Positions 18,930-43,896 of a stretch of 53,431 bases of DNA are shown piece after piece. Source of the stretch: an uncultured Bacilli bacterium (lineage in GTDB: Bacteria > Bacillota_I > Bacilli_A > RF39 > UBA660); the NCBI GenBank assembly GCA_947626115.1, contig CANQQX010000005.1:1-53431 (forward strand). The letters are read 5' to 3'. The translations under genes and the position numbers were made by a program. The notes under the pieces were generated by a model. It did no database searches. It was not told where the DNA came from and was given only the letters and a program-made list of their open reading frames with translations. Within the stretch, counting starts at the first letter, position 1, and each line of letters opens with the position of its first letter.

Positions 18930-20393
18930 ATGAAAAGAATAATAATAAATAACTATAAATTTATTTTTGGTTTAATACTTGGCTTAGTAATATCTTTAAC
19001 AACAGTATATGCAATTGATGCCTATATTGAAAGTAATAAAGTAGCCTATAATAATCATAATAAAACCAATGTCGAAGAAGCCATAGATGAATTGTACGAA
19101 AAAAGTGGCATGCATAAAAATAAATGGGTAGATCCAATACTTAATGGAGCAGATCCTGTATTAAAGAGTCCATTAATACCAGTTGAAATAAAAGACAATG
19201 GTGAAGTTTATTATGCTAACGAAAATAGTGAATGGTATAATTATAAGAAAAAAAGATGGGCTAACGCAGTTATCTTAATTGATGAACCTAGTAATGCAAA
19301 TTACCAAGTTGGAGATCACATAATAGAAGATGATATCGAAAGTTACTTTGTCTGGATACCAAGATATCAATATAAAGTATGGGATTTAGGAAAATATTCA
19401 AATGCGATAGCAGTTTCAAACATGAAAGATGTTCAAGATCAAAATGATACATCTTACTATAAATTGTTTGTTAACTATAGAACAATAGATATAAGATTTG
19501 GTACATATGATAAATATCCAAAGATGGCAGAACCAACATCAACAGGAGTATATTACACTCATCCAGCCTTTACTTTAGGAAATAAAGATTTAAATGGTAT
19601 CTGGATAGGGAAATTTGAAACAGGTGGAACAAATGCAGCAGATATTATTATTAAACCAAATGTAACGTCATGGCGAAATGAAACAGTAAGGACCTTTTTT
19701 GATGCTGCAAAACAATATAAAAGAGATTTAGATAGTCATATGATAAAGAATACAGAATGGGGAGCAGTAGCTTATTTATCACATTCTGCTTATGGTATTA
19801 ATACAGCAGTAAATATAAATAATGCTAAAGATAATATAACAGGTTATGCTGCTGCTCCAGGTACTAATCAAACTAAAATTCCGGGAGAAAATGGATCAAT
19901 TACTGACCCACAAGTAACTCAACCTTATAATACTGAAGCAGGTTATTTAGCCAGTACAACAGGCAATATTACCGGAGTATATGATATGAGTGGTGGAGCA
20001 CATGAATATGTAGCTAGTTGTTTAGAAAATACCTGGAATATAAGTGCAAGTGATTTTACTCTTGATTTACTAAATACTGAAATAGCTGCCGGATATATAG
20101 ATAAATATGCTAGTGATACTACTAATTATGCATATGATAAGCGTATTTTAGGTGATGCCATTGGAGAAATAGGCCCATATTATAATTTTATTGATAGCGA
20201 TGGTTATCCAAGAGCACATAATAGTTGGTATTATGATTATTCAATTTTTTTTGATCCTGGTCAGCCTTGGCTAACTCGTGGTATGGATTCTGGCTCTGGC
20301 ACATTAGCTAGTCAATTTGCTTTTGGCCCTAGTTCAGGCATAAAATTAAATAATGCAACTACTCGTCTTATTTTAGCACCCATAAATAATTAA
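18930..20393 (+). CDS. Surface protein with C-terminal FGE-sulfatase/CLec-like domain, paralog 1
   Basis: N-terminal signal or TM segment. FVWIPRY, WIGKFE, KNTEWGAVAYL, GVYDMSGGAHEYV, PWLTRG and terminal RLIL. Confidence 0.8.
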   Translation: MKRIIINNYKFIFGLILGLVISLTTVYAIDAYIESNKVAYNNHNKTNVEEAIDELYEKSGMHKNKWVDPILNGADPVLKSPLIPVEIKDNGEVYYANENSEWYNYKKKRWANAVILIDEPSNANYQVGDHIIEDDIESYFVWIPRYQYKVWDLGKYSNAIAVSNMKDVQDQNDTSYYKLFVNYRTIDIRFGTYDKYPKMAEPTSTGVYYTHPAFTLGNKDLNGIWIGKFETGGTNAADIIIKPNVTSWRNETVRTFFDAAKQYKRDLDSHMIKNTEWGAVAYLSHSAYGINTAVNINNAKDNITGYAAAPGTNQTKIPGENGSITDPQVTQPYNTEAGYLASTTGNITGVYDMSGGAHEYVASCLENTWNISASDFTLDLLNTEIAAGYIDKYASDTTNYAYDKRILGDAIGEIGPYYNFIDSDGYPRAHNSWYYDYSIFFDPGQPWLTRGMDSGSGTLASQFAFGPSSGIKLNNATTRLILAPINN

Positions 20394-20416: not shown

Positions 20417-21901
20417 ATGAAGAGAATAAATAATAAATGTATATTTATACTTGGTATATTAATAGGCGTTGTATTATCAGTAACAACAGTATATGCAGTA
20501 GATGCTTATATCGAAAGTAATAAAGTTGCCTATAATAATCATAATAAAAATAATGTTGAAGAAGCAATAGATGAATTATACGAAAAAAGTGGTATGCATA
20601 AAGATAAATGGGTAGATCCAATACTTAATGGAGCGGATCCTGTATTAAAAGATCCATTAATACCAGTTGAAATAAAACCTAATGGAGATGTATATTATGC
20701 TAACTTAAATAGTGAATGGTATAACTATAGTGAAAAAAGATGGGCCAATGCAATTATATTAGTAGATAGTCCCAGTAATACAAATTATAAAGTTGGAGAT
20801 CATATTCTAGAGAGTGATATTGAAAGTTATTTTGTGTGGATTCCAAGATATCAATATAAAGTATGGGATTTAGGAAAATATATCAGTGCTCCAGATGGAA
20901 GTACATTAGTAAATGGAAGTTATGCAACATCAACAACCCAAGCAATGAATAAATCAAGAATAATCGATATCCAATTTGGAACACCAAATAATATACCCAA
21001 AATGACAGAGCCAAGTACAACAGGAGTATATTATACTCATCCAGCCTTTACTTTAGGAAATAAAGATTTAAATGGTATCTGGGTAGGCAAATTTGAAACC
21101 GGATATAAAGGAGCAGATAGCACTACTAGTGCACAAGTAAATAGAGAAGATTCTACAAATGTAATAGTAAAACCAAATGTTCATTCGTGGCGATATAATT
21201 CTATTAAAAATATGTTCATGACATCATTTAATTATGAAAGAAATTTAGATAGTCATATGATGAAGAATACGGAATGGGGAGCGGTAGCATATTTATCTCA
21301 TTCACAATATGGTCTTGGCAATGAAGTAGAAATAAACAATACTAGTGATTATATGACTGGTTATGTAGCAGCCCCAAATACAAATCAAAGTACTCGTTTA
21401 GGTACTTATGTAGAAAGCAATGATAAAACCCAAACTCAACCATGGAATACACCAACTGGTCATTTAGGAAGTACAACCGGCAATATTAGTGGAGTATATG
21501 ATATGAGTGGTGGATCATGGGAATTAGTAGCGGGATGTATGGAAGGCCTAGTAGGTGATAGTGGCTTTGACACTTCAACTTTAGCAACTGAAATGGCTAA
21601 TGGCTATATTGATAAGTATCCCAATGTTAGTACTGAAACATCTTATAATAATAGAATTCTAGGGGATGCCACTGGAGAATTAGGCCCCTTTTATAGTTTT
21701 TATATTGGTGTAGGAACTAATTCTCATCATAATAGTTGGTATGGTGATGGAAATTACTTTGTTGAACCAAATAGACCTTGGTTTTCTCGTGGTAATGGCT
21801 TTAATGATGGTGCAGAAGCTGGGCAATTTGCAGCTTTTATTGGTAATGGTGGATTAAGTTATTCTACTTCTTTTCGCCTAGTTCTTACTCCAATTAAATA
21901 A
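20417..21901 (+). CDS. Surface protein with C-terminal FGE-sulfatase/CLec-like domain, paralog 2
   Basis: Same motifs (GVYDMSGGSWE, PWFSRG, SFRLVL). RBS AAGGAG. Confidence 0.8.
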   Translation: MKRINNKCIFILGILIGVVLSVTTVYAVDAYIESNKVAYNNHNKNNVEEAIDELYEKSGMHKDKWVDPILNGADPVLKDPLIPVEIKPNGDVYYANLNSEWYNYSEKRWANAIILVDSPSNTNYKVGDHILESDIESYFVWIPRYQYKVWDLGKYISAPDGSTLVNGSYATSTTQAMNKSRIIDIQFGTPNNIPKMTEPSTTGVYYTHPAFTLGNKDLNGIWVGKFETGYKGADSTTSAQVNREDSTNVIVKPNVHSWRYNSIKNMFMTSFNYERNLDSHMMKNTEWGAVAYLSHSQYGLGNEVEINNTSDYMTGYVAAPNTNQSTRLGTYVESNDKTQTQPWNTPTGHLGSTTGNISGVYDMSGGSWELVAGCMEGLVGDSGFDTSTLATEMANGYIDKYPNVSTETSYNNRILGDATGELGPFYSFYIGVGTNSHHNSWYGDGNYFVEPNRPWFSRGNGFNDGAEAGQFAAFIGNGGLSYSTSFRLVLTPIK

Positions 21902-27326: not shown

Positions 27327-30300
27327 ATGAAAGAAAAATTTAAATACTTATTAGTATTTTTAATAACTATAATTTTATTACCAATAAGTGTTTTGGCAAA
27401 AGAATCAGTAGAGTTAAAAATTGATAAAACTGATTTAAAAGTTGGTGATGAAGTAAAAGTAACTGCGAGTGTACCAAATAAAATGGAAGCATATGCTATT
27501 ATGGCAACATTAAAGTATGACAAAAATGTTTTTCAAATAGTTAATGATAGTAATTTTACTATTAAAAATGATGAAAGTATTAAATATAGTAAAGAAACAA
27601 ATAAATTTGGTATTATTAATAAAACAGGCAAAATATCTCTAAATGACGGAGATACACTTTTTACGGTTAATTTAAAAGTTAAAGATGATGCTAATGTTGG
27701 AAATACTAATATAGCTCTAACTAATATTACTTATACTGATGGCGATAAGGTGCAAAATTTAGATACAACATCTCTTAAAATATTAGTTACAAAAGATGCC
27801 AAAGATGGCGAAATAGTACCAGCAAATAAAGAAAATGAAATAGTTGAAGATGAAGAAAATATTATTAAAACATATAATAATATTCCCCTTATAATATTTT
27901 TGGGTATATTAGATGTCATTGGGTTAATTACTATTTTAATTATTAATAATAAAAATAAAGAGAATAATGATGATAAGAAAAAGAAAACAATTTTTGCTTT
28001 AATAGCATTAGAAATTGTTTTAGCACTAATAACTATAATTCTACTTTGGTTAAATTTTAATAAAACTGATGTCAATAATGATGGTAAAAAAGATTATCAT
28101 GATGCTGAAGAAATAATTGATTATTTAATTAATATTGAAGGAACAAAAGAAAAAAATAAAACAAATACTAATAAATATGATGTCAATAATGATGGCAAAG
28201 TAGATATTGAAGATATAGGTAATACTACGGAACAAATTGAAGATAATACTAAAGTAACTTTAAAAGAATTAAAAGAAGATAATGAATATTATGTTGAAAA
28301 GGGTAAAATAACGCTTAAATTTACGGCTGAAATTACACCAAAAGAAGCTAAAATAACTAAAGTTAAAATAGATAATAAATATTACAATGTAGAATTAGTA
28401 AGTGGAGTATATATAGCTATCGTAGATAATAAAGAAGCTGGTGTACATAATTTTGTAATTGAAGAAGTTGAACTTTCTAATGGAGTGAAAAGAAAAACTA
28501 ATTTAAAAATTACTAAAGAAGTATTAAAAGATCGTCCGGTAGTAGATGATTTAAGTCATGACATTAGAACTAGTGAATTATCTTTTACTGTAAAAGATAA
28601 AGATAAAGCTTTGCAAAGTGCTAGGATAACTGTTTTTGAAGGTAATATAACCGAAGAAGATATTAAAAATAGCGCTATTCAAACAAATCCTGATGATTTT
28701 GATAATTTTAAAGTAGTTTTTGAAGAAGAATTAGATCTTACTAAAAATTCATTTACTTTTAAACCAAAATTAGATATTGGTGGAGTTTATACTATTGTTA
28801 TTACGGGTAAATATGATTTAGACAGTAAAATTGGTGATAACAATAATTATGAAGAACAATTTCTTAATAATGGTTTAAATGTTATTACTGTGGGTAAAAT
28901 TACTATTACACCAAAAAGTACCGATGAAATATTTTTAACTAAAAAAACAAATCATGATTATTTATTTGATGTTGATTTTGAACCACAAATTATTGCTCAA
29001 GATGTTAAACAAGTTTTAATTGGGGAACAATATGTTGATGTAACTTATGAAGATGGTCATCTTAAATTAGTTCTTGATGATAATAAAATTGCTGGTGCTA
29101 AAAATATTATTATTAGTGCAGTTAAATTAGAAGATGGAACTGATGTTTTGTGTCATTATGAAATTAGTTATGATGTTTTAAAAGATGAACCAACAATAGA
29201 AAACTTTGTTTATCATAAAAAAACAAATAAAATTACTTTTGCTTTAAAAGATAATGATAATGCAATTAAAGATGCCAATATCAAAATAACTAATAAAGAT
29301 AATAAAGAAGTTTTTGCGGAAAATTTAAGTTTAGATACGAAAGATTATGCTTATAATAATATCAATTTAAAAGAAGGAGATACTTATAATATCAATATAG
29401 TTGGTAATTATGATTTAGATAGTAATGTCAATAATGATGCTAATGATGGCACGGCCAAATATGAACATAATCTTACTATTTATAATGTTGAATTACAAAA
29501 TGCTAATGAAGAAGAAGTTTATTATACTGAAAAAGGGGAAGAAATAACTTTAAAATTTAAAGCAATAATAAATCCAACTAATGAAGATGCTAAAATTAGT
29601 CAAGTTACCATTGGTGATGGCGTATATGAACCACAAAAAGATGAAAATGGTATCTATAGTGTTACTATTACTGCCCCAAATAAAGCCGAAGAAAAAAAAT
29701 ATACAATTAGAAATGTAATAATGGATGATGAAGATATAGATGAAAGCTTGTCTTTAAAAGTAGATGTTTTAAAAGACGTTCCTACAATAGAAGATTTATT
29801 AATTGATGAATCAAAAAATATTCCGGTTATAAGCTTTACTATAAAAGATCCGGATAATGCTTTAGATAAAAATGCTATTGGTAATTTAGTTATAGCTAAA
29901 GATGGTGGTAAAACCGAAACAATTGCCATAGATAAAGATTTCAAGGAAATTGCCTTAGATGCATTTGCAGATGAACTTGCTGGTAGTACTTTTGATTTAG
30001 ATATTAAAGCGAATTATAGTCGTCATAACTGTGAAAATGCTAGTAAATATAAGGAAGTGGATAAAAAATTAATTGATACTAAACAATTTAAAATATATAC
30101 AGCTACTTTAACGCCAGAAAGTAATAAAAACTTTGTACCTAAAAATGAAATAGTAGAATTTAAATTAAAATCAGATATTAAACCTAATGATGGTTCTACG
30201 ATAAAATCATTTGTGCTTGAAAATAATAAAGTTGTTGATGCTAGTAAAATAAATGATGGATCATATGCAATCAATTTAGAAACATTAAATGTAGCTGGTG

Positions 30301-33300
30301 ATAAAACTTATAAAATAGAAAAAATAATTTTAGAAAATGATATTGAAATAAAAGCTACTGCTAATATTTCTGTATATGTATTAAAAGATATTCCATATGT
30401 TAACAAATTGAATTTAAATGAAGATAATGAATCGATAAGCTATGAATTACATGATCCAGATAATGCACTTACTAGTGGAACAATCACAATTACTGGAAAA
30501 GATGATCAAAATCTTACAGAAAATGTTCAAAAAAGTGGTAAAGCTACTATAAATTATAATTTTCAAGATGGTGAAAGTTATGTAGTTAAAGTTATTGGTA
30601 GTTATGATTTAGATTCTAATAAAGAAAATAAACAAAATAGTGTTGATAATAAGGAGATGTCTTTAGAATCTTTCATAGTAGGTGGCGAATATAATTTTAC
30701 TCTTACTAATGCTAGTATTACAGATGCTCTTAAACCTAATGAATATCCAATATTAACATTTAAAAGTACTAATACTAGAAGTACATTTATAAATAGAGCA
30801 GAATTAACCATTGATGGTGAAAGTAGTCAATATGAAGTTACTAAAATTGATAAAGATACATATCAAATAGAATTATCTAATGTAGATATTAATCCAGGCA
30901 AACATACAGTTACTTTAGATAAAGTTAGTATGAATAATGGGGCTAAAACATTTGAAAATACAAAAGATTATAAAGTAAACGAATTAACTTATACTGTTTT
31001 AAAAGAAGCTCCTAAAGCGGATGGATTAACACTAAGTGTAAATAAAGCTAATAAAAGTGTTGTAGCTAATTTTAGTATAATTGATTCAAATAATGCTCTT
31101 AAAAAATTAAATGTGGCTTTAGTTGATTCAACTGGTAAAATAGTTTCTACTAAAGTTCTTAATTATGCTGAATTTGCTAGTAAAGATACAATAAAAGTTG
31201 AACTTTCTTATAATGGCAATACTGATGGCAGATATACCGTAAAAGTTTTAGCAGATTATGAACTTGCTCAAAAATATTTCTATGCTAATGAATGTATTGG
31301 CGAAAATACAGTTTTAGTTTATAGTAATGATGAAATTAGAATTGATAGAATGTATGTAGTTAACGATAGAAATGTTGAACAAGTTGATGGTTTATTCCCA
31401 ACCAAGATGCAAAAGAATTATCAAATTGCGGTGGAAGTAACAATCGCTGATTCTGTTAAAGCCCGTGGTTATGGTAGAGTATCTGGAGTAACTATCAATG
31501 GCGTTAATTATCCAGCTAACCAAATAAGTGGTTATAAATCTAAAGTTTATATTAATGTTCCTGCCACTGCGGGTGTAATTGAATTAACTGCTAATCGGGT
31601 TCAACTAGCTAATGATGGTTATTATAAAATATATAATGATTATTATTCTGTACCAGAAACGACTTTAAAATTAGATGTTTTAAAAGATAAACCAAAAATA
31701 GAAAATCTAGAAATTGAAGAAGATTATGAGAAAAAAGAAGTTACCTTTAATTTTGATGTAGTATTAGATGAAACTGCTAAAAGTGATGAATTTACGGATG
31801 GAACTATTACTTTAAATGGTGTAGATAAAGATATCAAAGTAGGACCAAATAATATTACCTTTACTAATGTAGATCAAAATAAAACTTATGATTTAATATT
31901 TAAGGGAACATATGATTTAGATACTAATACCTTTGATGACATAAGTAATGAGAAAAATAAAACTGTTAAAGGTGAATTTTATCGAGTAAAATATGGTTTA
32001 TATAATGATAATACATATGAAACAATAAATATTACTGATGCCAAGCTTGTTAGTGAAAAAGGTAATAAATATTTTGAAAAAAATGAAAAAGTTAAATTAC
32101 AATTTAAAGTTTCTGGTCTTAATGAAAATTTAGGTGTATTACCTAGCAAAGTAGTTATTAAAGATGAAGAATATAATTTAACAAAATTAGATGATAATTA
32201 TTATGAATTAATAATAGATGGTTATTCTAGTTTTGGCGAAAAAGCAATAACTATTACCGATATAATTTTAGATAATAGTAAAAAAGTTACTTTAACTGAG
32301 CCATTTACCTTTAATCCTGAAGTATTAAAAGACGCTATTAAAATAAATGATTATAAGTATAAAGTTGATGATGATAATATTACAATTAATATCGATTTAG
32401 ATGATGCCGATGGTGCAATAGTAGGATTTGCTAATGTAACAGTAACTGATGAAAAAGGAAAAGAACTATATAATAATAATTATCAAAATGAAATTGTAAT
32501 TAATCGTGCAGATAAGAGTATTTTAAGATATTATGTCAAACTTACTTTAGATTATGACCGAGATATTGATAAAGGTGATGATACTGCTAACCATTATAGT
32601 GATGTTTTACTTCTTGATGAATTAATATCATTAGAGAAAAATAATATTGAATTAAAAGATATTATTGATATTAACTTATATAAATATGCTAATGATAATA
32701 ATGAAGAAAGTATCAAGAAAATTGATGAAATTTCAATTACGGAATTAAAAGATAAATTAGATTCATATTTTGTTGAAGTTGTAATGGAAAATCTGCCAGC
32801 TATTCGAACTAAAATAGTTGATGTAAAAACTGTTCAAAATCATTTGATTTTAGTTTTAGATTATGATTATGTAACTAAAGAAGGTGGAGCGAAAAACAAT
32901 TTAGAAATTGATTTTGGTGAAATAAAAGAAAATAATAAAGCTAAAAATGAATTCCACCCAGAAACTGCAATTGAATCATTAATTGCAAAATTAGAAGCAA
33001 ATGAACCAGTTACCTTAAATCAAAATTATGATTTTTCTAAAATTAAATTAGATCGTAATGTATATATTGAAAATTATTCTAGTGTATTAGATGGTAATGG
33101 TTATACTTTTAAAAACTTAAGTAAACCATTATTTGGTACTCTTACTGGTGAAGTTAAAAATTTAAATATCAATGATGTTACCTTTGATGGCAATGGCCAT
33201 GGTGCTTTAGCTAATAATACGAATGGGGCTATAATTGAATATGTTTTAGTCGATCGCGTAACAAGAACATCTACTGCTAATAATCCTAATGGTGGTTTAA

Positions 33301-36300
33301 TTGGGGTAGCAGATAATACCAAAATAAAAACTAGTCGTGTTACCAATGTACTTATAAATGCTGGTTATTATGAACAACAAAATGGTTTATTAATTGGTAA
33401 TTCAAATAATAATACTGTTGTTGAAAATTGTTATGCTGAAGGAACTATTTCTGGTGGTTATAACTATACAAGTGGATTTATAGGTAACGCTAAATCTACT
33501 ACAATGCGAAATAATTATGCTAAAGTAACTACTAGAGGTCAATCTGGTTCTGTATTTGGTTTTGCAAGTGCTTATGGTAATAACGCATCTATTTATGAAA
33601 ATAATGTAAGTATCGCAAGTAATACAAGTACAACTATGATAAGTAGTGCTAGAACTATAAATAATAACTATTTCTTCATTAATAAAGAAGCAACTAATTC
33701 AAATGGTATAACTATTATTAAAGAAGATGAAATTAATGATGATTTATTCGCAAATAGAGTTAAACTTAGTGAAGATATTTGGTATATTAAAGATGTTAAT
33801 ATAAATAATTTACCAATCTTTCAAATAGAAAAGAAATCAGTAATTAATGATAAAACAATTGAAGATTATCAAGAAAAACATGAAACATTATATAAAAATT
33901 TAATGAAATTAATGCCTTTCTTTGATGATAAAAAAATAGTAGAAACTAGTAAGAATATTCCCGAAGATAGTAATTTAGTAACTAAAACTATTAAACATAT
34001 TGTACCAGTTGATGAAAATGGTAATTTAGTTACTTATTTAACTACTGATAATCCAAAGAAAATAAAGAATATAAAAATTATATTTACTGATGGCTCTAAA
34101 GAAGAATACAAAGTTAATTATGATAAAACCTATGATATGGTAGCGTCATATAAAATTAGTGAGTTAAATATCGATTATAATTATGAGCATTATGTTATTA
34201 ATAATGATTCGCAAGTAGTAGTTAATTTAACAAATTACTTAAAAGGATTAGATTATACTAATAATTTAGATATACTAACTACTAATGCTGATTCTAGATT
34301 ATATCGTGATTTCTATAATGAAAATACTAAATATGATTTAGAAGAATTTGTCTTAAAATATTTATCTAATAGTGAATATACTAATACTTCATCAAATAGC
34401 GCAATTAATAATTATATTGAAAGTGAAGTTAAAAAAGAGCAAAAATTAGAAAAGGCTTTATATGTCTATAATTATTTAAAGAGATTCTATGATTTAGATA
34501 TTGGTGGTATGAAGTTATATGACTTTATAATGTTTAATATGAAAGGCTTTGATGAAAGTTTAACTACCGATAAAATTGTTGAATTATATTTAGGTAATGG
34601 TAGTGGGGATAATTTTAATACTAATCAAACTAATACAAGATATAATGAAGTATTAGGTAAATATACTAATTTAAATACCATACCTAAATTAGTTGAATAT
34701 TTAGTAAAAGGGTTAACTAATGCTGATTTATCAGCATGGACTCGTAGTCAAGTTAAAAGTATTTTAGTGGAAATTCCAATTGATGGACATCCAAATGTAA
34801 AATATACTTTATGGGATCATTTTATCAGTGAATCAAATGATGAGATATTAAATCAATTCTTACCAATGCTTACTTTACCAGAAGGAGCAGCTTATATAAT
34901 GTCAATGCCAGTTCAATATATAATTGGAGCGCAAAGAACATATATAGTTGATCCATCTAATCCAAGTGATGTAGAGAATTTAAAAGCGAGAATGAAAACT
35001 TATGAAACAAGAATGAAAAGATATTTTGATACTGCTTATTCAATATTAGAAGATGAAAAATTATTTAATGATATTTTAATTTATAGTGTTGATAAGAGAC
35101 TTACTAAAACAGAAACTGGTTCTGTTAGTAATACTGCTTATACAACAACTGAACCATTCCATAAAAACTTTGTCGAAGCAACTGGTTTGTGGGCGGCTGC
35201 AGCTGGAGTAAATGCTGCTGCCTGGGGTCCTCGTCTTGAATGGCAAGTAGCAGGTATTTTAGATAGTACGCTTGCTGAAGAAGGTTATAATGATACATCT
35301 CATGTTACCTTTAGAACTTGGTCACATGAATCAGCTCACCTTATTGATGCTAGATTATTCTTAAGAAATAATGGACGTCGTTTTGATGCAGGTGGCGAAG
35401 ATTATGCTGATAACTTCTTAATGCAATCATTTGATAGAAATAGTATTACAATGAATTTATCAATGATGATGGATAAAACAGCAAAAAGTGTCGAAGAAGC
35501 AACTAAAGCTAATGATGCAAAATTAGGCCCAGTAGCATCTAACCTAACACCAGAGAGAATCAATAGTCCAGAAAAGATTCATGATTTCTATCGTAAATTA
35601 TTTGAAACAGTTTATGTAATTGATTATATTGAAGCACAAGCATTCTTAAAACTTCCGGCTGATACACAAAAAGATTTAGCTATTCAAGTATCTTATCCAA
35701 ATGAAACAAAACAATTTACTAGAGTAGTTGATGAAAATGGTAAAGATACTGATCAATTTGAAGGTCCATTCTATAAAGATGATGAATTCGCTAAATATCG
35801 AGCTAGAGAAACAACTAAATATACGAGATTAAATGAATTAACTGATTTTAATACACCATTAAGAACAATGAATGATTTAATTAATAATAGAATTATGTTA
35901 TATCCTGGTGTTTATCGTTATTCATCTCGTGGTAATAATTCATATGGTGGAGAAGGAATTAATACCGTTCACTGGTATCAACCATGGAATCCAGATGGTA
36001 GACCTGATTCTTATGCTTTAAAATGGATAAGTTATGAAATGCTTGGTTGGAAGGGATATAATAATGGTTTTGTTGAATATGCAAGTAATGTTCATTATCA
36101 ACCAAATAAAATCTATTCAGATTTATCTCATCCAAAAAAAGGTACATCGACCGTAAATTATAAATCAGATAGCATGGCTTTAGCTCAAATTTCTAATAAT
36201 CGTTTCACCAACTTTAGTGATTACAAAAAATATCGCTTTAATGATATTAAAGATAAATTAGATCGCCTTGATAGTATAATTAATGTTGATGATTATATTG

Positions 36301-36554
36301 ATGCTTTTGTAGAATCGTTGCAAAAAGACGCCATTGATATTACCGAAGGAGTTCAAAGTGAACTTGATAGAGTTCCAACTTGCCCAACTGATTATTATTG
36401 TTCTCGTGGTAAATTTGCTACTTATTTATCTTATCAATATAGTACAGCATTAAGACAAGAAATATACTACAAGTTAAAAACTGAAACTAACGATTTTAGA
36501 GATGAAATTTTTAAAGATTCTACGCAACAAACTATTACTAAGTTAGCCGAATAA
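27327..36554 (+). CDS. Giant surface zinc metalloprotease (ZmpA/B/C, peptidase M26-like) with cohesin-like and dockerin-like domains
   Basis: Signal peptide, cohesin-like beta domain, two TMs, two DVNNDG Ca-binding loops, about 7 large repeats, GLUG-like motifs, and HESAH with Glu 20 residues downstream. Confidence 0.85.
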   Translation: MKEKFKYLLVFLITIILLPISVLAKESVELKIDKTDLKVGDEVKVTASVPNKMEAYAIMATLKYDKNVFQIVNDSNFTIKNDESIKYSKETNKFGIINKTGKISLNDGDTLFTVNLKVKDDANVGNTNIALTNITYTDGDKVQNLDTTSLKILVTKDAKDGEIVPANKENEIVEDEENIIKTYNNIPLIIFLGILDVIGLITILIINNKNKENNDDKKKKTIFALIALEIVLALITIILLWLNFNKTDVNNDGKKDYHDAEEIIDYLINIEGTKEKNKTNTNKYDVNNDGKVDIEDIGNTTEQIEDNTKVTLKELKEDNEYYVEKGKITLKFTAEITPKEAKITKVKIDNKYYNVELVSGVYIAIVDNKEAGVHNFVIEEVELSNGVKRKTNLKITKEVLKDRPVVDDLSHDIRTSELSFTVKDKDKALQSARITVFEGNITEEDIKNSAIQTNPDDFDNFKVVFEEELDLTKNSFTFKPKLDIGGVYTIVITGKYDLDSKIGDNNNYEEQFLNNGLNVITVGKITITPKSTDEIFLTKKTNHDYLFDVDFEPQIIAQDVKQVLIGEQYVDVTYEDGHLKLVLDDNKIAGAKNIIISAVKLEDGTDVLCHYEISYDVLKDEPTIENFVYHKKTNKITFALKDNDNAIKDANIKITNKDNKEVFAENLSLDTKDYAYNNINLKEGDTYNINIVGNYDLDSNVNNDANDGTAKYEHNLTIYNVELQNANEEEVYYTEKGEEITLKFKAIINPTNEDAKISQVTIGDGVYEPQKDENGIYSVTITAPNKAEEKKYTIRNVIMDDEDIDESLSLKVDVLKDVPTIEDLLIDESKNIPVISFTIKDPDNALDKNAIGNLVIAKDGGKTETIAIDKDFKEIALDAFADELAGSTFDLDIKANYSRHNCENASKYKEVDKKLIDTKQFKIYTATLTPESNKNFVPKNEIVEFKLKSDIKPNDGSTIKSFVLENNKVVDASKINDGSYAINLETLNVAGDKTYKIEKIILENDIEIKATANISVYVLKDIPYVNKLNLNEDNESISYELHDPDNALTSGTITITGKDDQNLTENVQKSGKATINYNFQDGESYVVKVIGSYDLDSNKENKQNSVDNKEMSLESFIVGGEYNFTLTNASITDALKPNEYPILTFKSTNTRSTFINRAELTIDGESSQYEVTKIDKDTYQIELSNVDINPGKHTVTLDKVSMNNGAKTFENTKDYKVNELTYTVLKEAPKADGLTLSVNKANKSVVANFSIIDSNNALKKLNVALVDSTGKIVSTKVLNYAEFASKDTIKVELSYNGNTDGRYTVKVLADYELAQKYFYANECIGENTVLVYSNDEIRIDRMYVVNDRNVEQVDGLFPTKMQKNYQIAVEVTIADSVKARGYGRVSGVTINGVNYPANQISGYKSKVYINVPATAGVIELTANRVQLANDGYYKIYNDYYSVPETTLKLDVLKDKPKIENLEIEEDYEKKEVTFNFDVVLDETAKSDEFTDGTITLNGVDKDIKVGPNNITFTNVDQNKTYDLIFKGTYDLDTNTFDDISNEKNKTVKGEFYRVKYGLYNDNTYETINITDAKLVSEKGNKYFEKNEKVKLQFKVSGLNENLGVLPSKVVIKDEEYNLTKLDDNYYELIIDGYSSFGEKAITITDIILDNSKKVTLTEPFTFNPEVLKDAIKINDYKYKVDDDNITINIDLDDADGAIVGFANVTVTDEKGKELYNNNYQNEIVINRADKSILRYYVKLTLDYDRDIDKGDDTANHYSDVLLLDELISLEKNNIELKDIIDINLYKYANDNNEESIKKIDEISITELKDKLDSYFVEVVMENLPAIRTKIVDVKTVQNHLILVLDYDYVTKEGGAKNNLEIDFGEIKENNKAKNEFHPETAIESLIAKLEANEPVTLNQNYDFSKIKLDRNVYIENYSSVLDGNGYTFKNLSKPLFGTLTGEVKNLNINDVTFDGNGHGALANNTNGAIIEYVLVDRVTRTSTANNPNGGLIGVADNTKIKTSRVTNVLINAGYYEQQNGLLIGNSNNNTVVENCYAEGTISGGYNYTSGFIGNAKSTTMRNNYAKVTTRGQSGSVFGFASAYGNNASIYENNVSIASNTSTTMISSARTINNNYFFINKEATNSNGITIIKEDEINDDLFANRVKLSEDIWYIKDVNINNLPIFQIEKKSVINDKTIEDYQEKHETLYKNLMKLMPFFDDKKIVETSKNIPEDSNLVTKTIKHIVPVDENGNLVTYLTTDNPKKIKNIKIIFTDGSKEEYKVNYDKTYDMVASYKISELNIDYNYEHYVINNDSQVVVNLTNYLKGLDYTNNLDILTTNADSRLYRDFYNENTKYDLEEFVLKYLSNSEYTNTSSNSAINNYIESEVKKEQKLEKALYVYNYLKRFYDLDIGGMKLYDFIMFNMKGFDESLTTDKIVELYLGNGSGDNFNTNQTNTRYNEVLGKYTNLNTIPKLVEYLVKGLTNADLSAWTRSQVKSILVEIPIDGHPNVKYTLWDHFISESNDEILNQFLPMLTLPEGAAYIMSMPVQYIIGAQRTYIVDPSNPSDVENLKARMKTYETRMKRYFDTAYSILEDEKLFNDILIYSVDKRLTKTETGSVSNTAYTTTEPFHKNFVEATGLWAAAAGVNAAAWGPRLEWQVAGILDSTLAEEGYNDTSHVTFRTWSHESAHLIDARLFLRNNGRRFDAGGEDYADNFLMQSFDRNSITMNLSMMMDKTAKSVEEATKANDAKLGPVASNLTPERINSPEKIHDFYRKLFETVYVIDYIEAQAFLKLPADTQKDLAIQVSYPNETKQFTRVVDENGKDTDQFEGPFYKDDEFAKYRARETTKYTRLNELTDFNTPLRTMNDLINNRIMLYPGVYRYSSRGNNSYGGEGINTVHWYQPWNPDGRPDSYALKWISYEMLGWKGYNNGFVEYASNVHYQPNKIYSDLSHPKKGTSTVNYKSDSMALAQISNNRFTNFSDYKKYRFNDIKDKLDRLDSIINVDDYIDAFVESLQKDAIDITEGVQSELDRVPTCPTDYYCSRGKFATYLSYQYSTALRQEIYYKLKTETNDFRDEIFKDSTQQTITKLAE

Positions 36555-36756: not shown

Positions 36757-38246
36757 ATGAAGAGAGTAATAAATAATAATAATAAAATAATAATTGGTTT
36801 TATCATAGGATTACTATTTTCTATAACAACAGTATATGCAGTAGATGCCTATATTGAAAGTAATAAAGTAGCTTATACTAATCACAATAAAAATAATGTC
36901 GAAGAAGCCATAGATGAATTGTATGAAAAAAGTGGTATGCATAAAGATAAATGGGTAGATCCAATACTTAATGGAGCAGATCCTGTATTTGATAATGAAG
37001 GAAAGTTAATTCCAGTAGAAATAAAACCGAATGGTGATGTATATTATGCAAGTTTAAATAGTGAATGGTATAATTATAGTGAGAAAAGATGGGCCAATGC
37101 TGTAATATTAGTAGATAATCCAAGTAATACAAATTATCAAGTTGGAGATCACATAATAGAAGATGATATTGAAAGTTACTTTGTCTGGATACCAAGATAT
37201 CAATATAAAGTATGGGATTTAGGAAAATATAATAGTGCTCCAGATGGAAACACTTTAACAGATAAAGACTATAATTCATCAACAGCTCAAGCATTAAATA
37301 AATCAATACTAATAGATATAAAATTTGGTAACATTGACAAAGCCCTTAAAATGGTAGAGCCAAGTATAACAGGAGTATATTATACCCATCCAGCATTTAC
37401 CTTAGGAGATAAAGATTTAAATGGTTTATGGATAGGTAAATTTGAAACAGGATATAAAGGGGCAACAAGTAAAGAAACAGCTGAAGTAAATAGAGAAGAA
37501 ACTACAAGTGTCATAATAAAGCCAGATGTTTATTTGTGCGTAATATATCAGTGAAAAATATATTTATGACTTCATATAATTATGATAGAAACTTAGATAG
37601 TCATATGATAAAGAATACAGAATGGGGAGCTGCAGCTTATCTTTCCCACTCACAATATGGAATAGGAAATGAAATAAGACTTAATAACACAAGCGATTAT
37701 AAAACTGGTTATTCAGCTGCTGCCAATACTAATCAAAGTACTCGTTTAGGTACTTATGCCGAAAGTACTGATAAAACTATAACGCAACCATGGAATACGG
37801 CAACGGGCTATTTAGCGAGTACTACCGGAAATATAAGTGGTATATATGATATGTCAGGTGGTGGTTGGGAATACGTTGCTGGTTGTCTAAATGAAACAAT
37901 TGGTGCTAGTGAATTTACTATAGACGAATTAAAATACTATACTCAACTTGATTATTTAGATATATATGATAAAAATAGTTTAATTTCATCATATAATAAT
38001 AGAATATTAGGTGATGCAACAGGAGAAACGGGGCCATTTTTTAAATATAATGATGGAGATAATGGTGTAAGAACTCATAATAGTTGGTATAGTGATTGGG
38101 CCTGGTTTATTTTTGGCATCTATCCTTGGTTTGTTCGAGGTGGCGGTTACGATTCCGGTGGACTTTCTGGTGCTTTTAATTTTAGTCGTTTTGGTGGAGA
38201 AGCTTCAGAATATTTTTCATATAGAATTACTCTTGCACCAATATAA
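36757..38246 (+). pseudogene. FGE-sulfatase/CLec-like surface protein paralog 3, split by a 1-bp frameshift (or a sequencing error)
   Basis: ORFs 36757-37554 and 37536-38246 together align with paralogs 1 and 2. The conserved Trp-Arg codons TGG CGN appear as TG CGT at 37537-37541. Confidence 0.8.
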
Positions 38247-38250
38247 TTAT

Positions 38251-38589
38251 TTATATTTTGTTATTTTTTACTATACAAAAAGCAATAGCGTAATCATTAT
38301 CATAAGATAAAGATAAATTTATTGCATATTCTTCGTGATTAATGATAGAAGGAATAGGCTCCCCTAAAGAACCTTTTAATATTTCAATTTCATTAAAATC
38401 AAACTTACTATTAGTAGCTTTAATAATGGCTTCTTTAGCTGCAAATCTGGTGGCTAAAAAGTTAATTGGTTCCTTTATAGTACTCGCAATATCTAGCTCT
38501 TTTTTGGTATATACTTTTTTAATAAATGATGGATTATTATCTATCATTTTTTTAAGTCTTGGAATAAATACTATATCAGTTCCAATCAT
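38251..38589 (-). CDS. acpS: Holo-ACP synthase (phosphopantetheinyl transferase)
   Basis: IGTDIV..R, FLATRFAAKEAIIKA, G.P and LSLSY. Confidence 0.92.
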   Translation of the reverse strand: MIGTDIVFIPRLKKMIDNNPSFIKKVYTKKELDIASTIKEPINFLATRFAAKEAIIKATNSKFDFNEIEILKGSLGEPIPSIINHEEYAINLSLSYDNDYAIAFCIVKNNKI

Positions 38590-38695: not shown

Positions 38696-38938
38696 ATGAA
38701 AGACGAAATTGAACAAAAATTAATTGAAAAGACTGCTAAAGTATTAGGAGTAGATCCATCTACATTATCTGGTAGTACTAATATTAGAACAGATATTGAT
38801 TTAAAAAGCTTAGAAATGGTAGGAATTATTTCTGAATTTGAAGAAGAATATGACTGTTATATTAAGTATACTGAATTAATGCATGCTAATACTATTAGTG
38901 AATCTGCTGAAATTATTGCAAAACAAATTGAAGGCTAA
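38696..38938 (+). CDS. Acyl carrier protein (atypical KSL motif)
   Basis: 80-aa acidic protein with DIDLKSLEMVGIISEFEEEY. Strong RBS AGGAGG. Divergent from acpS. Confidence 0.85.
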   Translation: MKDEIEQKLIEKTAKVLGVDPSTLSGSTNIRTDIDLKSLEMVGIISEFEEEYDCYIKYTELMHANTISESAEIIAKQIEG

Positions 38939-38968: not shown

Positions 38969-40780
38969 TTGAAAGAAGAAAAAAAGCCGATTGAAAACGA
39001 ATTGTCCTTACCAAAGGAAATGCCAAAAAGGGATGAAAAAATAGTTAATGTTAAATATCCTGATGGCACAAGTTGTGATGTTATTTTTACCAAAATGACT
39101 CAACCTATACCAAAAGAGGAATTTGCGAAAGTTCCAAGAGAAGAAGCAATGAATTATTGCATTGAGGTACCTGTTAATACAACAGAGTATTATGTTGATG
39201 ATGAGAAAAGAGTAATATGTCTTCAAGATAGACCAGTTAAAATGCGTGATGGTGTAACTATTTACGCTGATATTTATATTCCAACTAGTGCCTTAAAAAC
39301 ACCAGTTCCACTTATTATTAGTTGGTCATTCTTTGGTAAACAACCTTGGCATCAACCAGTCCAAATTTTTAGACCGATGGGTGTACCTACAGGTGCTGTT
39401 TCAAATGTTTGTAAATTTGAATCATCTGATCCACTATTCTGGTGTTATCAAGGATATGCTGTTGCCAATGTAGATCCAAGAGGTATTGGTAATAGTGAAG
39501 GAGACCAACAACAATTTGGTACTCAAGAAGGAAGAGATGGCTATGACTTTATTGAATGGGCTGCTAAAGAAAAATGGTGTAATGGTAAAATAGCACTATT
39601 TGGTAACTCAGGTGTTGCCATGAGTCAATGGCGTATTGCCGCTGAATGTCCACCTCACCTAGTTTGTATTGCTCCATGGGAAGCAACAGGTGATCAATAT
39701 CGTGAAAGTATTATGGAAGGTGGTATTCCTGGATTCTTTGGTGGTTCAATAGTTATTGCTGCTCAAGGAAGAGGTTATATCGATAATACAGTTGCGATGG
39801 CCAAAAAAGAACCATATGTTACTAGTCCTTATTGGCAAGATAAAATACCTCATTATGAAAAAATTAATATCCCAGTTTATACTACTTGTAACTGGAACCA
39901 TTTCCATTTAAGAGGAAGCTGGGAAGGATTTAAAAATATTAAAACTAAGAAAAAATGGATGCGTTGCCATCAAGTATTTGAATGGCCAGATACCTATAAT
40001 TCAAAATGGCTACAAGATTTAAAATTATTCTTTGATCGTTATTTAAAAGGTATCTATAACGGTTGGGAATTAACACCAAGAATTAGAATGGAAGTTATGG
40101 ATGCATTTGAATATCCATATCAAACTAATCGTCCAGAAAATGAATGGCCACTTGCAAGAACTGTTTATAAGAAATTATATTTAAATGCCAATACTCATAA
40201 ATTAGGTGATGCGCCAGTTAAAAATGCTAGTAGTGTTAGTTATGATGGGGCAACAGGTTTAACAACATTTGAATATACATTTAGAAAAGATACTGAACTT
40301 ACAGGTTATATGAAGCTTAGAATGTATGTTGAAGCTAAAGGTCATGATGATATGGATTTATTTATAACTATTAAGAAGCTATCTACTAAAGGTGAAGAAT
40401 TACCAGTAACTATCTTTGGTTCTGAACGCCATCCAGGTGCTTGGGGTAAACTTAGAGTTTCAGCAAGACACTTAGACGAAGAAAAATCTACGGAATATCA
40501 ACCAGTTCATACTCATGATAGAACTGAAAAATTAAAACCTGGTGAAATTGTTCCAGTAGATATTGAAATTTGGCCTATCTCAAGAATTTGGCATAAAGGT
40601 CAAAAATTACAACTTCAAATTGCTGGTAGATATATTCGTGATGAATGGTTTGAACCACTTGTTTGGTTCCCTGATAATAAAGGTGAACATGTTATTCATA
40701 CAGGTGGCAAATATGAATCATACTTATTAGTTCCAGTTATTCCACCTCGTTATGAAGATGGCGACTATATTTATAGATAG
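38969..40780 (+). CDS. CocE/NonD family serine hydrolase/acyltransferase
   Basis: MRDGVTIYADIYIP, DPRGIGNSEG, W.NGKIALFGNS nucleophile elbow and PepX_C-like C-domain. No signal peptide. Confidence 0.92.
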   Translation: MKEEKKPIENELSLPKEMPKRDEKIVNVKYPDGTSCDVIFTKMTQPIPKEEFAKVPREEAMNYCIEVPVNTTEYYVDDEKRVICLQDRPVKMRDGVTIYADIYIPTSALKTPVPLIISWSFFGKQPWHQPVQIFRPMGVPTGAVSNVCKFESSDPLFWCYQGYAVANVDPRGIGNSEGDQQQFGTQEGRDGYDFIEWAAKEKWCNGKIALFGNSGVAMSQWRIAAECPPHLVCIAPWEATGDQYRESIMEGGIPGFFGGSIVIAAQGRGYIDNTVAMAKKEPYVTSPYWQDKIPHYEKINIPVYTTCNWNHFHLRGSWEGFKNIKTKKKWMRCHQVFEWPDTYNSKWLQDLKLFFDRYLKGIYNGWELTPRIRMEVMDAFEYPYQTNRPENEWPLARTVYKKLYLNANTHKLGDAPVKNASSVSYDGATGLTTFEYTFRKDTELTGYMKLRMYVEAKGHDDMDLFITIKKLSTKGEELPVTIFGSERHPGAWGKLRVSARHLDEEKSTEYQPVHTHDRTEKLKPGEIVPVDIEIWPISRIWHKGQKLQLQIAGRYIRDEWFEPLVWFPDNKGEHVIHTGGKYESYLLVPVIPPRYEDGDYIYR

Positions 40781-40788
40781 GAGTAATT

Positions 40789-41835
40789 ATGGACTTAATA
40801 GAAACTGTTAAAGCTAAGGCAAAGGCTAACCCAGGAAGGGTAGCCTTTCCTGAAGCTAATGATGCGAAAATGGTTCTAGCGATAGATGAAGTTTCTAGAG
40901 AAAAATACTGTGATGTTGTAATTGTCGGTCATATTGATGAAGTAAAATCATTATGTAAAGAAAATAAAATAGATGATTCTACTTGGGAATATATTGATAC
41001 GAGTGATGAAGACTATAAAGAAAAAGTATTACAAAAATATTTACAATTACCTAATTTAGTCTATGGCGAAAAATCACTAAGAAGAAGAATGAATGAACCA
41101 TTATATTTAGCATTTATGATGGAAGCTATTGATGAAGTAGATGTCACATTTGCTGGTATTACCAGTGCAACAGGTGATATTATTTTAGCGGCTCAAACTA
41201 TCGTTGGCTTAAATAATGAACTTGAAGTAGCATCTTCTGTAGGTATAGCAGAACTTCCTAATTATACATTCCCTGATGGTGGCCATTTAATTGCCGTTGG
41301 TGATTGTGCCGTATGTACTAATCCTAGTGCATCGGAACTTGCTAGTATTGCGATAAATACTTGTGATACAATTCATGCAGTAACCGGTTGGGAACCAAGA
41401 TGTGCTTTACTTTCATATTCAACTGATGGATCTGGCAGTGGTGAGCTTGTTGAAAAAGTAAAAACTGCTGTTAAACTTGCAAAAGAGCGAAGACCAGATT
41501 TAAAAATAGATGGTGAATTTCAATTAGATGCCGCGATTGTTCCTGAAATAGCGCAAAAAAAGGTTAAAAGAGAAAGTGAAGTAGCAGGGAAGGCTAATAT
41601 ATTAATTTTTCCAGATTTAAATGCTGGTAATATAGGAGTTAAATTAATTCAACAATTTGGTGGGGCTGATGCTTATGGACCATTATTACAAGGATTTAGA
41701 AAGATTTGTAGTGATTGCTCTAGAAGTGCTCCAGTATCTGAACTTGTTGGTAATATTTTATTTTCTATTGTGCGATCAGGCGATTTAAAAACAAAAGACT
41801 TAAAATTAGGAGATTTAAAAAATGGAAAAAAATAA
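40789..41835 (+). CDS. Phosphate acyltransferase (Pta/EutD-like, divergent)
   Basis: VAFPE, DCAV..NP, LSYST.GS, DGEFQLDAA, FPDLNAGNI and GPLLQG..SDCSR. Confidence 0.9.
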   Translation: MDLIETVKAKAKANPGRVAFPEANDAKMVLAIDEVSREKYCDVVIVGHIDEVKSLCKENKIDDSTWEYIDTSDEDYKEKVLQKYLQLPNLVYGEKSLRRRMNEPLYLAFMMEAIDEVDVTFAGITSATGDIILAAQTIVGLNNELEVASSVGIAELPNYTFPDGGHLIAVGDCAVCTNPSASELASIAINTCDTIHAVTGWEPRCALLSYSTDGSGSGELVEKVKTAVKLAKERRPDLKIDGEFQLDAAIVPEIAQKKVKRESEVAGKANILIFPDLNAGNIGVKLIQQFGGADAYGPLLQGFRKICSDCSRSAPVSELVGNILFSIVRSGDLKTKDLKLGDLKNGKK

Positions 41836-42934
41836 GTTTAGAATTTTATCAATAAATCCTGGATCAACTAGTACAAAGATTGGTTTATTTGATAATGATG
41901 AATGCGTTTTTAGAGTTAATATAGAACATGAACAAGATATTTTAAAAGTTTTTAAAGAAATATCTGATCAAAGAGAATTTCGTCTTAATACTGTCTTAGA
42001 TACTTTAAAAGAAAATAATATCCCGATTGAATCTATTGATGCATTCTCAGGTCGTGGAGGTTCACTTGAATGTTGTGAAGGTGGAACTTACGAAATAAAT
42101 GAACTTATGTATAATGATGCTAAATCAATGCGAATAGTTAAACATCCTTCAGCCCTTGGTATTGTTTTAGCTTACGAACTTGCTCATAAATATAATAAAA
42201 GATGTTTCTGTGTTAATCCACCTGATGTTGATGAATTTAATATCGAAGCCAGAATTACTGGTATTCCCGGTATTTTTAGAGAAAGTAGAATCCATGCTTT
42301 AAATCAAAAAGAAATTGCTATTCGTTATTCAGAAAAAGTTAACTGTAAGTATGAAGATTTAAATTTAATCATTTGTCATGCTGGTGGTGGTATATCTATC
42401 GCTGCCCATAATCATGGTAAAATGATTGATTGTAATGATATTGTTAATGGTGATGGTCCCATGGCTCCAACTAGAAGCGGTTTTATTCCTGCTAAGCCTT
42501 TAGTTAATATGTGTTTTAGTGGAAAATATAGTGAAGCTGATATAAAAGCCTTAATTAACAAAAATGGTGGTATTTTAGCCCATTTAGGTACAGCTGATAT
42601 TAAAGAGGTTGTACAAATGATTAATGATGGCAATAAAAAAGCGCAAATTATCTATGATGCGATGATTTATCAAATTGCTAAACAAATTGGAGCAATGTAT
42701 GTAGCTTTAAAATGTAATTGTAGTGCGATAATTCTAACTGGTGGTATTGCTAATGATTCTTATTATGTCAAGAAACTAAATAAATATATTAAGAATTTAT
42801 GTAAAGTAGAAGTAATGCCAGGCGAATTTGAATTAGAAGCACTAGCTGCTGGTGCTCTAAGAGTTCTAACAAATAAAGAAAAAGTTAAAGAATATATTGG
42901 TAAACCTGTATTTAATGGTGTGATAGGAGAATAA
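41822..42934 (+). CDS. buk: Butyrate kinase
   Basis: INPGSTSTKIG, GRGG, HALNQK, H.GGGIS, GP..P.RSG, LTGG and PGE.E. Confidence 0.93.
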   Translation: MEKNKFRILSINPGSTSTKIGLFDNDECVFRVNIEHEQDILKVFKEISDQREFRLNTVLDTLKENNIPIESIDAFSGRGGSLECCEGGTYEINELMYNDAKSMRIVKHPSALGIVLAYELAHKYNKRCFCVNPPDVDEFNIEARITGIPGIFRESRIHALNQKEIAIRYSEKVNCKYEDLNLIICHAGGGISIAAHNHGKMIDCNDIVNGDGPMAPTRSGFIPAKPLVNMCFSGKYSEADIKALINKNGGILAHLGTADIKEVVQMINDGNKKAQIIYDAMIYQIAKQIGAMYVALKCNCSAIILTGGIANDSYYVKKLNKYIKNLCKVEVMPGEFELEALAAGALRVLTNKEKVKEYIGKPVFNGVIGE

Positions 42935-43380
42935 TGATGAAAAGTAAAGATATAGTTAAACAATTATTACCCGGAGTGGTAGTTGGATTTATCTTAGGTA
43001 TCATTTTAGTGTCTCTCGTTGGGGTTGATAAAGAACAATCAATTCCTAATTATATAGGTGGAGTAATGTGCTGTTTAGTACCAACTTTCCTTAACTGTTT
43101 AATAGTATTATTTGGTACTGCTAAAACTTTAAAAAGAAAAATTTCTTTTAAAGATGTCTTACTTAGAATTCTTCCTTATATCTTTTTAGCAGGACTCATT
43201 GGCTTATTTGTCGTTGCAGTAGTAGTGGAAAGATTAATTGGTATTGATCCAAGAACTATTTCCTTAATGATGACTGCTATCTATGAAGCTTTATTAGGAG
43301 TTGTAGTATCTACCATTTTTGCTTATATTGCTTTAAAAAAATATGCTAAAGATGTTAAATATACAAAAAGAAATAAATAA
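42934..43380 (+). CDS. Four-TM membrane protein
   Basis: Four hydrophobic stretches. Translationally coupled to buk (TAATG). Confidence 0.8.
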   Translation: MMKSKDIVKQLLPGVVVGFILGIILVSLVGVDKEQSIPNYIGGVMCCLVPTFLNCLIVLFGTAKTLKRKISFKDVLLRILPYIFLAGLIGLFVVAVVVERLIGIDPRTISLMMTAIYEALLGVVVSTIFAYIALKKYAKDVKYTKRNK

Positions 43381-43683: not shown

Positions 43684-43701
43684 AAAAAGGAGTTAAACTC
43701 C

Positions 43702-43896
43702 TTAGTTATTAAAGTTATTATTATTACCAGTAAACCAACCAGCACCTATTATAATAACTAATAAAATAAATAGAACAATCCAAATGGCTGCACCTATACC
43801 ATAGCCACTTGTGTAACCAGCATAGCCAGCGCCACCATAACAAGGAGTACTAGCATAGTTACCACCATAGTAACCATTATTTCCGTAATAATACAT
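43702..43896 (-). CDS. YjcZ/SscA-family small Gly/Tyr-rich membrane protein
   Basis: GY-rich N-terminus followed by IVLFILLVIIIGA. RBS AAGGAGG. Confidence 0.8.
   Translation of the reverse strand: MYYYGNNGYYGGNYASTPCYGGAGYAGYTSGYGIGAAIWIVLFILLVIIIGAGWFTGNNNNFNN

Follow-up and report, generated by a model that had tools for sequence, protein, structure and literature searches.

The DNA analysed here, which we call the window, is a stretch of 53,431 nt from an uncultured Bacilli bacterium (RF39; UBA660), taken from positions 1-53,431 of the forward strand of contig CANQQX010000005.1 in assembly GCA_947626115.1. The host genome (G000) comprises 1.27 Mb and is 93% complete. The window contains a six-gene cassette in the order acpS (minus strand), acp, cocE, pta, buk and a membrane-protein gene, with the following features:

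38251..38589, minus strand: AcpS-type phosphopantetheinyl transferase (PPTase), divergently transcribed (PF01648, E=1e-15; TIGR00516, above cut-off)
38696..38938, plus strand: acyl carrier protein (ACP), 80 aa, attachment Ser38 in a K-S-L motif, net charge -9 (PF00550, above cut-off)
38969..40780, plus strand: CocE/NonD-family serine hydrolase, 603 aa, with a G-N-S214-G elbow; predicted acyl-loading enzyme (TIGR00976, PF02129 and PF08530)
40789..41835, plus strand: Arg-less Pta-family phosphotransacylase, 348 aa (PF01515, E=1e-84; below all ten NCBIfam cut-offs; model and superposition)
41050..41052, plus strand: Pro88, replacing the CoA 3'-phosphate-binding Arg87 (sequence alignment)
41071..41088, plus strand: K95-S-L-R-R-R100 basic patch, within helix 94-100 of the AlphaFold model; predicted ACP-contact surface
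41185..41187, plus strand: Leu133, replacing the CoA pyrophosphate-binding Arg133 (sequence alignment)
41713..41742, plus strand: catalytic segment D309-C-S311-R312...E318, equivalent to D307, S309, R310 and D316 of M. thermophila (Mt) Pta (sequence alignment)
41822..42934, plus strand: butyrate-kinase-family kinase (Buk), overlapping the pta stop (TIGR02707, 418 bits, cut-off 289; 1x9j/1saz, E=1e-87)
42934..43380, plus strand: hydrophobic protein, 148 aa, candidate transporter (no Pfam or NCBIfam match)

The same cassette order recurs in relatives at differing chromosomal sites, and the GC content of the cassette genes (25-34%) is similar to that of the window's core genes, so that there is no sign of recent transfer. 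The cassette ACP, the only PF00550 match in the host genome, scores 30.6 bits versus 20.8 for that profile and falls below the AcpP equivalog cut-offs. AcpS is the sole PPTase that locus-derived profiles detected in this genome, and it likely primes the cassette ACP. Homologues of the 148-aa protein were found only in the loci of close relatives, together with the cassette, and an Atlas search returned unnamed clusters only. A promoter scan was uninformative (27 sites observed versus 35 expected), and the only terminator-like stem lies on the minus strand (43687-43703). In one RNA run, 0.13 of the words matched, and short contigs over cocE, pta and buk were mostly 90-99% alike; that single run provides no evidence for transcription or co-transcription of the cassette.

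Elsewhere in the window, a predicted surface protein of 3075 aa (27327-36554, plus strand) carries, by eye, D-x-N-x-D-G repeats close to the N-terminus and, in addition, long repeats; an H-E-x-x-H motif resembling those of metallopeptidases lies in its C-terminal part. Further predicted surface proteins, three paralogues, are encoded at 18930-20393, 20417-21901 and 36757-38246 (plus strand). The third of these adjoins acpS and consists of two overlapping ORFs (265 and 236 aa, with a weak FGE-sulfatase match), which form one 483-aa ORF in locus L013.

The Pta-family protein belongs to PF01515 (284.9 bits versus a cut-off of 24) and has the two-domain Pta fold. It scored 256.4 bits against the 311.2 required for the pta equivalog TIGR00651 and 66.5 bits against the 410.5 required for Ptb (TIGR02706), and the PlsX profile PF02504 gave no match, only PF01515 being matched. 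We made the structural comparison with M. thermophila Pta that an earlier note on this DNA had proposed: an AlphaFold model (pLDDT 84.9) superimposed on 1qzt_B with Z 40.5 and an rmsd of 2.4 Å over 330 residues, compared with Z 31.4 for Ptb. Solved Ptas were the best Foldseek matches of the model, and the PTA domains of MaeB matched it at Z ~37. Because the superposition and Foldseek outputs carry no residue pairs, residue equivalences are based on sequence alignment.

The earlier note had aligned the protein by eye, and both CoA-binding arginines had seemed to be gone while the catalytic Ser-Arg was kept. A phmmer alignment with 1qzt agrees: Arg87 is replaced by Pro88 (Q86-L87-P88 for Mt E85-L86-R87) and Arg133 by Leu133, the latter in a gap-free stretch (T128-G-D-I-I-L133 for Mt S128-S-D-T-L-R133). 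A third arginine, Mt R28, is K27 here. The loop near 87 is shorter by 1-2 residues than in ordinary Ptas, so the register there is soft; in either register, no Arg or Lys is present at 84-94, which answers, for Arg87, the concern that a proper alignment might show the arginine to be retained. The segment D309-C-S311-R312...E318 corresponds to Mt D307-L-S309-R310...D316, and thus the catalytic Asp, Ser and Arg are all present, and Asp316 is changed to Glu318, as had been noticed. Nine of 114 ordinary Ptas, like E. coli 1vmi, also have Glu here, and for that reason we rejected the Asp-to-Glu change as a marker of specificity. Among the query and its best 120 of 6112 homologues, which are 70-98% identical and have intact frames, position 88 is P or S and position 133 is L, Y, F or M in 121/121, and K95, R100, S311, R312 and E318 are likewise invariant (121/121). 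Judged from these sequences, the residue pattern is neither chance nor a sequencing artefact, and the enzyme looks catalytically intact. Its C-terminal tail (41770-41835) contains a short tandem duplication of ~10 extra residues (20 in L003) that is missing from most homologues.

A tree of 240 sequences was built from locus Ptas with at least 280 aligned residues and representatives of 300-365 aa, excluding near-duplicates of the window. The query falls in a 78-member clade (FastTree support 0.76), which persists when the trait columns are removed (33 members on one branch of a 58-row subset, SH-aLRT 91). Arg or Lys at 133 occurs in 2/78 clade members versus 107/114 ordinary Ptas, Arg within columns 86-89 in 7/78 versus 104/114, and Arg28 in 4/78 versus 114/114; by this tree, the arginine-less pattern is a trait of the clade. 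The basic patch KSLRRR, to which attention had been drawn earlier, likewise proved to be a real change relative to ordinary Ptas: position 95, where the patch begins, is Lys in 60/78 clade members and Glu or Asp in 84/114 ordinary enzymes. R99 is found in 67 of the 78, and the catalytic positions are well kept (D309 in 75, S311 in 75, R312 in 76 and E318 in 68). An intermediate group of 48 Ptas retains R/K133 in 8 members and has lost it in 40; the majority of their loci lack ACP. Five such loci (L128, L129, L134, L136 and L149), with Arg133 lost or changed and no ACP, place the Pta beside nagB-like, acetate-kinase-like or unknown genes. Named clade members are Bacilli and Eggerthellaceae. The clade Pta is present in 9/42 genomes of the host genus, 33/42 having no Pta match, and in two further families of the host's class (2/398 other genomes scored). 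In the wider order, 50/201 genomes have a PF01515 gene, mostly of the ordinary type.

Loss of the arginines would permit loss of CoA use and does not prove it. In Listeria Lmo1369, whose structure was presumably solved with CoA, the position of Arg133 is His. We took residue roles from a study of P. gingivalis Pta (PMC6461089), according to which Arg89 and Arg135 (Mt 87 and 133) interact with acetyl-CoA at its 3'- and beta-phosphates. There, replacement of Arg89 or Arg135 lowered activity by 58% and 21%, leaving 42% and 79%; both arginines were assigned to a lower-affinity CoA site 2, and mainly Km was affected. D309A, S311A and R312A abolished activity, and D318A left 11%. The new basic helix sits just past the former 3'-phosphate site and could itself rebind CoA. 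Taken alone, then, the residues are a weak argument for ACP.

The gene context argues for it more strongly. Using profiles built from the loci, we scored the gene context of 58 loci in the clade and 23 outside it; partial Ptas were excluded, as were the window's near-duplicates and 28 loci of ordinary Ptas whose flanks extended no further than 1.5 kb. Where each flank measured at least 1.5 kb, an ACP gene was present in 36/36 clade loci versus 2/14 outside loci, counts that are not independent, since several loci are near-identical and all share ancestry. In these 36 clade loci, Buk was found in 34, PPTase in 23, CocE in 23 and thiolase plus DUF35 in 15, with one or the other upstream enzyme in all 36; in the 14 outside loci, Buk was found in none and CocE or thiolase in one. 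The two outside ACPs are those of L131, an Arg-less sister with a thiolase, and L139, where an ordinary-looking ACP lies 3.5 kb off. When clade loci of all lengths are considered, 44/58 have an ACP, and all 14 misses have a flank below 1.4 kb. The same loci had supplied the seeds of the ACP profile; 21 candidates were therefore checked with Pfam: 20 match PF00550 at E ≤ 0.01, 18 of them over the cut-off, and the fused domain of L107 was missed. Among 37 aligned cluster ACPs the attachment serine is invariant (37/37), and at the acidic end of helix II Glu49 is invariant and Asp53 nearly so. Net charge, which is -9 here, ranges from just -1 to -4 in several loci of the CocE type. Fusions join an ACP-like domain to CocE in four loci (L097, L107, L109 and L110) and ACP to DUF35 in two (L092, L093). 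On the tree, Ptas linked to CocE and Ptas linked to thiolase are intermingled; it is therefore the ACP that stays constant as a partner, and not the enzyme upstream.

The earlier note had proposed that specificity moved from CoA to ACP. This claim now draws its support mainly from context, namely an ACP in 36/36 loci while the upstream enzyme is swapped; its original basis in residues alone is weak, given the P. gingivalis mutants and the 40/48 intermediates without R/K133. We consider a switch to ACP likely and, from gene linkage more than from residues, well supported.

Regarding the upstream enzymes, the CocE-type protein of the cassette has 3ib3 as its closest solved structure (E=5e-90), one of the CocE/NonD hydrolases, among which cocaine esterase also belongs. 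The Ser nucleophile elbow is kept; it reads G-N-S-G here, not G-x-S-Y, with Phe where 3ib3 has the Tyr of the xxYGK motif and linkage or fusion to ACP. Cluster CocE homologues in general have an elbow of the form G-N-S-(G/C/F/W/A/M) and often Phe for the xxYGK Tyr, changes that hint at altered chemistry. The alternative module of thiolase plus DUF35, found in other hosts and not in G000, is related (E 8e-30 to 2e-12) to the complexes of BbsAB benzoylsuccinyl-CoA thiolase (7pxp), archaeal thiolase (7yvy, 6esq) and PhlBC (5m3k). These complexes, we assume, use CoA or no carrier.

In other hosts the neighbours are of catabolic type: flavin reductases, MFS transporters and PucR regulators. PhlG/phloretin-hydrolase-family genes (PF18089) lie directly upstream of an Arg-less Pta in L072 (4481-5887), there between ACP and Pta, and in L132 (7018-7899), and L125 has a weak fragment; flavin reductases occur in several loci. 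L132 is an Arg-less sister whose locus encodes an acetate kinase; its flanks, at least 4 kb each, contain no ACP. No PhlG-family gene or flavin reductase like those of the other loci was found in G000, and a flavonoid link is not established. ACP-CoA transacylase is not a regular member of the cassette loci. Some loci are more elaborate. In L107 (11635-15242), L109 and L110, the ACP-CocE fusion is followed in the same locus by 2-hydroxyacyl-CoA dehydratase and family III CoA-transferase, which are CoA-dependent, and L058, L092 and L093 have both CocE and thiolase and two kinases around one Pta, with two ACP domains in L092 and L093. Many genus members contain a second, unrelated ACP cassette (L150, L152, L157, L160), not found in G000, with an AMP-ligase-like gene, an ACP with a D-S-L-type motif, an Sfp-type PPTase and two glycosyltransferase-like ORFs (named by eye).

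PF01515 and ACP are each represented by a single gene in the host genome, and both genes belong to the cassette. Profile searches of G000 found no PlsX (PF02504), PlsY, DegV/FakB, CoaE, CoaBC, PFL or PDH E1, and no thiolase or DUF35 like those of the other loci. PlsY and CoaE were each found in 0/42 genomes of the genus, 18 of which are at least 90% complete. PFOR is present in 39/42, AckA over cut-off in 39/42 and PduL in 40/42, and G000 itself carries PduL and AckA. Because these two cover acetyl-CoA disposal and the clade Pta occurs in 9/42 genomes, the cassette is accessory. The idea of a housekeeping Pta, suggested by a sole PF01515 gene in a genome with PFOR, was rejected given PduL in G000 and 40/42 and the 33/42 genomes without a Pta match. 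G000 thus has CoA-dependent PFOR and PduL with no CoaE or CoaBC found.

We propose, with a probability of roughly 0.6, that the Pta-family protein acts as acyl-ACP:phosphate transacylase within an ATP-yielding, catabolic module of ACP, Pta and Buk. AcpS, by its family function, would place phosphopantetheine on Ser38 of the ACP, so that CoA would be needed in catalytic amounts only. Ser214 of the CocE-type enzyme, or elsewhere a thiolase Cys with DUF35, would then cleave an activated acyl donor, with the ACP thiol accepting the acyl group instead of water, as adjacency and the gene fusions suggest. Thiols are energetically unfavourable acceptors for the acyl group of an ordinary oxygen ester, and this step therefore requires an activated donor. 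Nothing in G000 names the substrate of the cassette; our leading guess is plant polyphenol-derived C-acyl compounds or aryl esters, the former suggested by the PhlG-family genes of L072 and L132, the flavin reductases and the thiolase matches to BbsB and PhlC. The Arg-less Pta would pass the acyl group from ACP to phosphate; with ACP standing in for the ADP half of CoA, the nucleotide-gripping arginines would no longer be needed. The KSLRRR helix (94-100) would meet the acidic helix II of ACP, as does the charged helix of ACP-using LuxI enzymes. In that family (PMC4234381), the enzymes that use ACP are set apart from the CoA users by a helix of positive charge. Finally, the kinase would yield ATP and the free acid, its family function being run in this direction, and the relay as a whole would make ATP without free coenzyme A.

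Among known systems, the closest is Pta itself (M. thermophila 1qzt; P. gingivalis 6iow/6iox; PF01515, TIGR00651) with AckA or Buk, which shares the fold at 32-33% identity, the catalytic Asp-x-Ser-Arg and an adjoining kinase partner. The present enzyme differs from it in the loss of Arg28, Arg87 and Arg133, the Asp316-to-Glu change, the new basic helix and the linkage to ACP, PPTase, and CocE or thiolase/DUF35. The Ptb-Buk pair (7vg9, Lmo1369, 1yco) is likewise coupled to butyrate kinase, and a wider acyl range is plausible, but Ptb lies further away (Z 25-31 versus 40 for Pta) and uses acyl-CoA without an ACP partner. PlsX (6a1k, 1vi1, 1u7n; PF02504) belongs to the same fold family (Z 22.8-23.9) and carries out the reaction proposed here, although at 15-18% identity it is far more distant than Pta. 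As described in PMC10146087, PlsX exchanges acyl-ACP and acyl-phosphate reversibly, and ACP is predicted to dock on a positive patch. The suggestion that our protein is convergent with PlsX would hold for the chemistry, whereas the shared fold (Z 23.9) would make this a parallel carrier switch within one superfamily. PlsX serves phospholipid synthesis together with PlsY, and with PlsY in 0/42 genus genomes a lipid role is unlikely. PlsX, PlsY and DegV were not found in G000, so no lipid sink for acyl-ACP is evident there, and we rejected replacement of PlsX on this ground. A full-text literature search, covering mainly papers outside subscription, returned no description of an ACP-linked Pta or such a module, and the accessible part of a study on anaerobic phloroglucinol breakdown (PMC10470551) never mentions a carrier protein.

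Other readings of the locus have to be weighed against acyl-ACP use. It is possible, though in our judgement unlikely, that the Pta still works on a small-molecule thiol (CoA, dephospho-CoA or pantetheine) at an altered site and that ACP acts in another step, for example by handing its acyl group to CoA first. Such a hand-over would be at odds with the lack of an ACP-CoA transacylase among the regular members of the loci and with a six-gene cassette that offers no ACP user other than CocE. The activity left in the P. gingivalis mutants (PMC6461089), the His of Lmo1369 and the Arg-less Pta without ACP in L132 all show how such an enzyme might retain a small thiol, and the basic helix could substitute for the lost arginines; against this, the loss of three conserved arginines coincides with charge reversal at 95. 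A 3'-dephospho cofactor would fit the genus-wide failure to find CoaE, but arginine loss is common to the whole clade, beyond the host genus, so an adaptation to missing CoaE is itself unlikely.

With the same ACP specificity, the pathway might instead run in reverse, the kinase activating an acid with ATP, Pta loading ACP (as FakAB plus PlsX do) and CocE or thiolase acylating a small molecule, lipid or surface polymer. Every step can run backwards, such loading is performed by PlsX (PMC10146087), the acyltransferase PhlC is among the thiolase matches, and the uphill ester-to-thioester step would be avoided. Nevertheless, we consider this direction distinctly improbable: PlsY, PlsX, FakB and a synthase context were not found, the neighbours are reductases, importers and PucR regulators, and it is two unrelated bond-cleaving folds that interchange upstream. 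That the Pta domain is non-catalytic or decaying, a sensor or scaffold like the PTA domain of MaeB, is very hard to reconcile with intact frames across the best 120 of 6112 homologues, the near-complete retention of D309, S311 and R312 and the adjacent kinase gene in 34/36 clade loci, even though the protein falls below all NCBIfam equivalog cut-offs, resembles the MaeB domains at Z ~37 and has lost Asp316.

If the acyl-ACP:phosphate transacylase reading is correct, the Pta/PlsX fold would have switched carrier from CoA to ACP a second time, independently, and the cells would have a route to ATP that runs over a protein-bound thioester and is insulated from the CoA pool. Members of a "hydrolase" family would become energy-conserving transacylases, and many genes annotated "phosphate acetyltransferase / butyrate kinase", which are currently taken as a sign of butyrate production, would need a corrected annotation. 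Uncultured Bacilli with reduced genomes, and other anaerobes, would gain an energy source from the module, which, consisting of five small soluble proteins, is directly testable in vitro. At about even odds, we suggest a broader picture, in which anaerobes run a plug-in form of substrate-level phosphorylation without CoA. Its back end would be constant, combining an ACP reserved for the module with a Pta specific for ACP and a kinase of the butyrate type, and its front ends (CocE-type or thiolase plus DUF35) would be interchangeable. The energy of bonds that are simply hydrolysed in known pathways would be saved as ATP, probably during the degradation of plant polyphenols, and the six-gene version would be kept for energy alone by a 1.3-Mb bacterium in which neither CoA synthesis nor phospholipid synthesis is recognisable.
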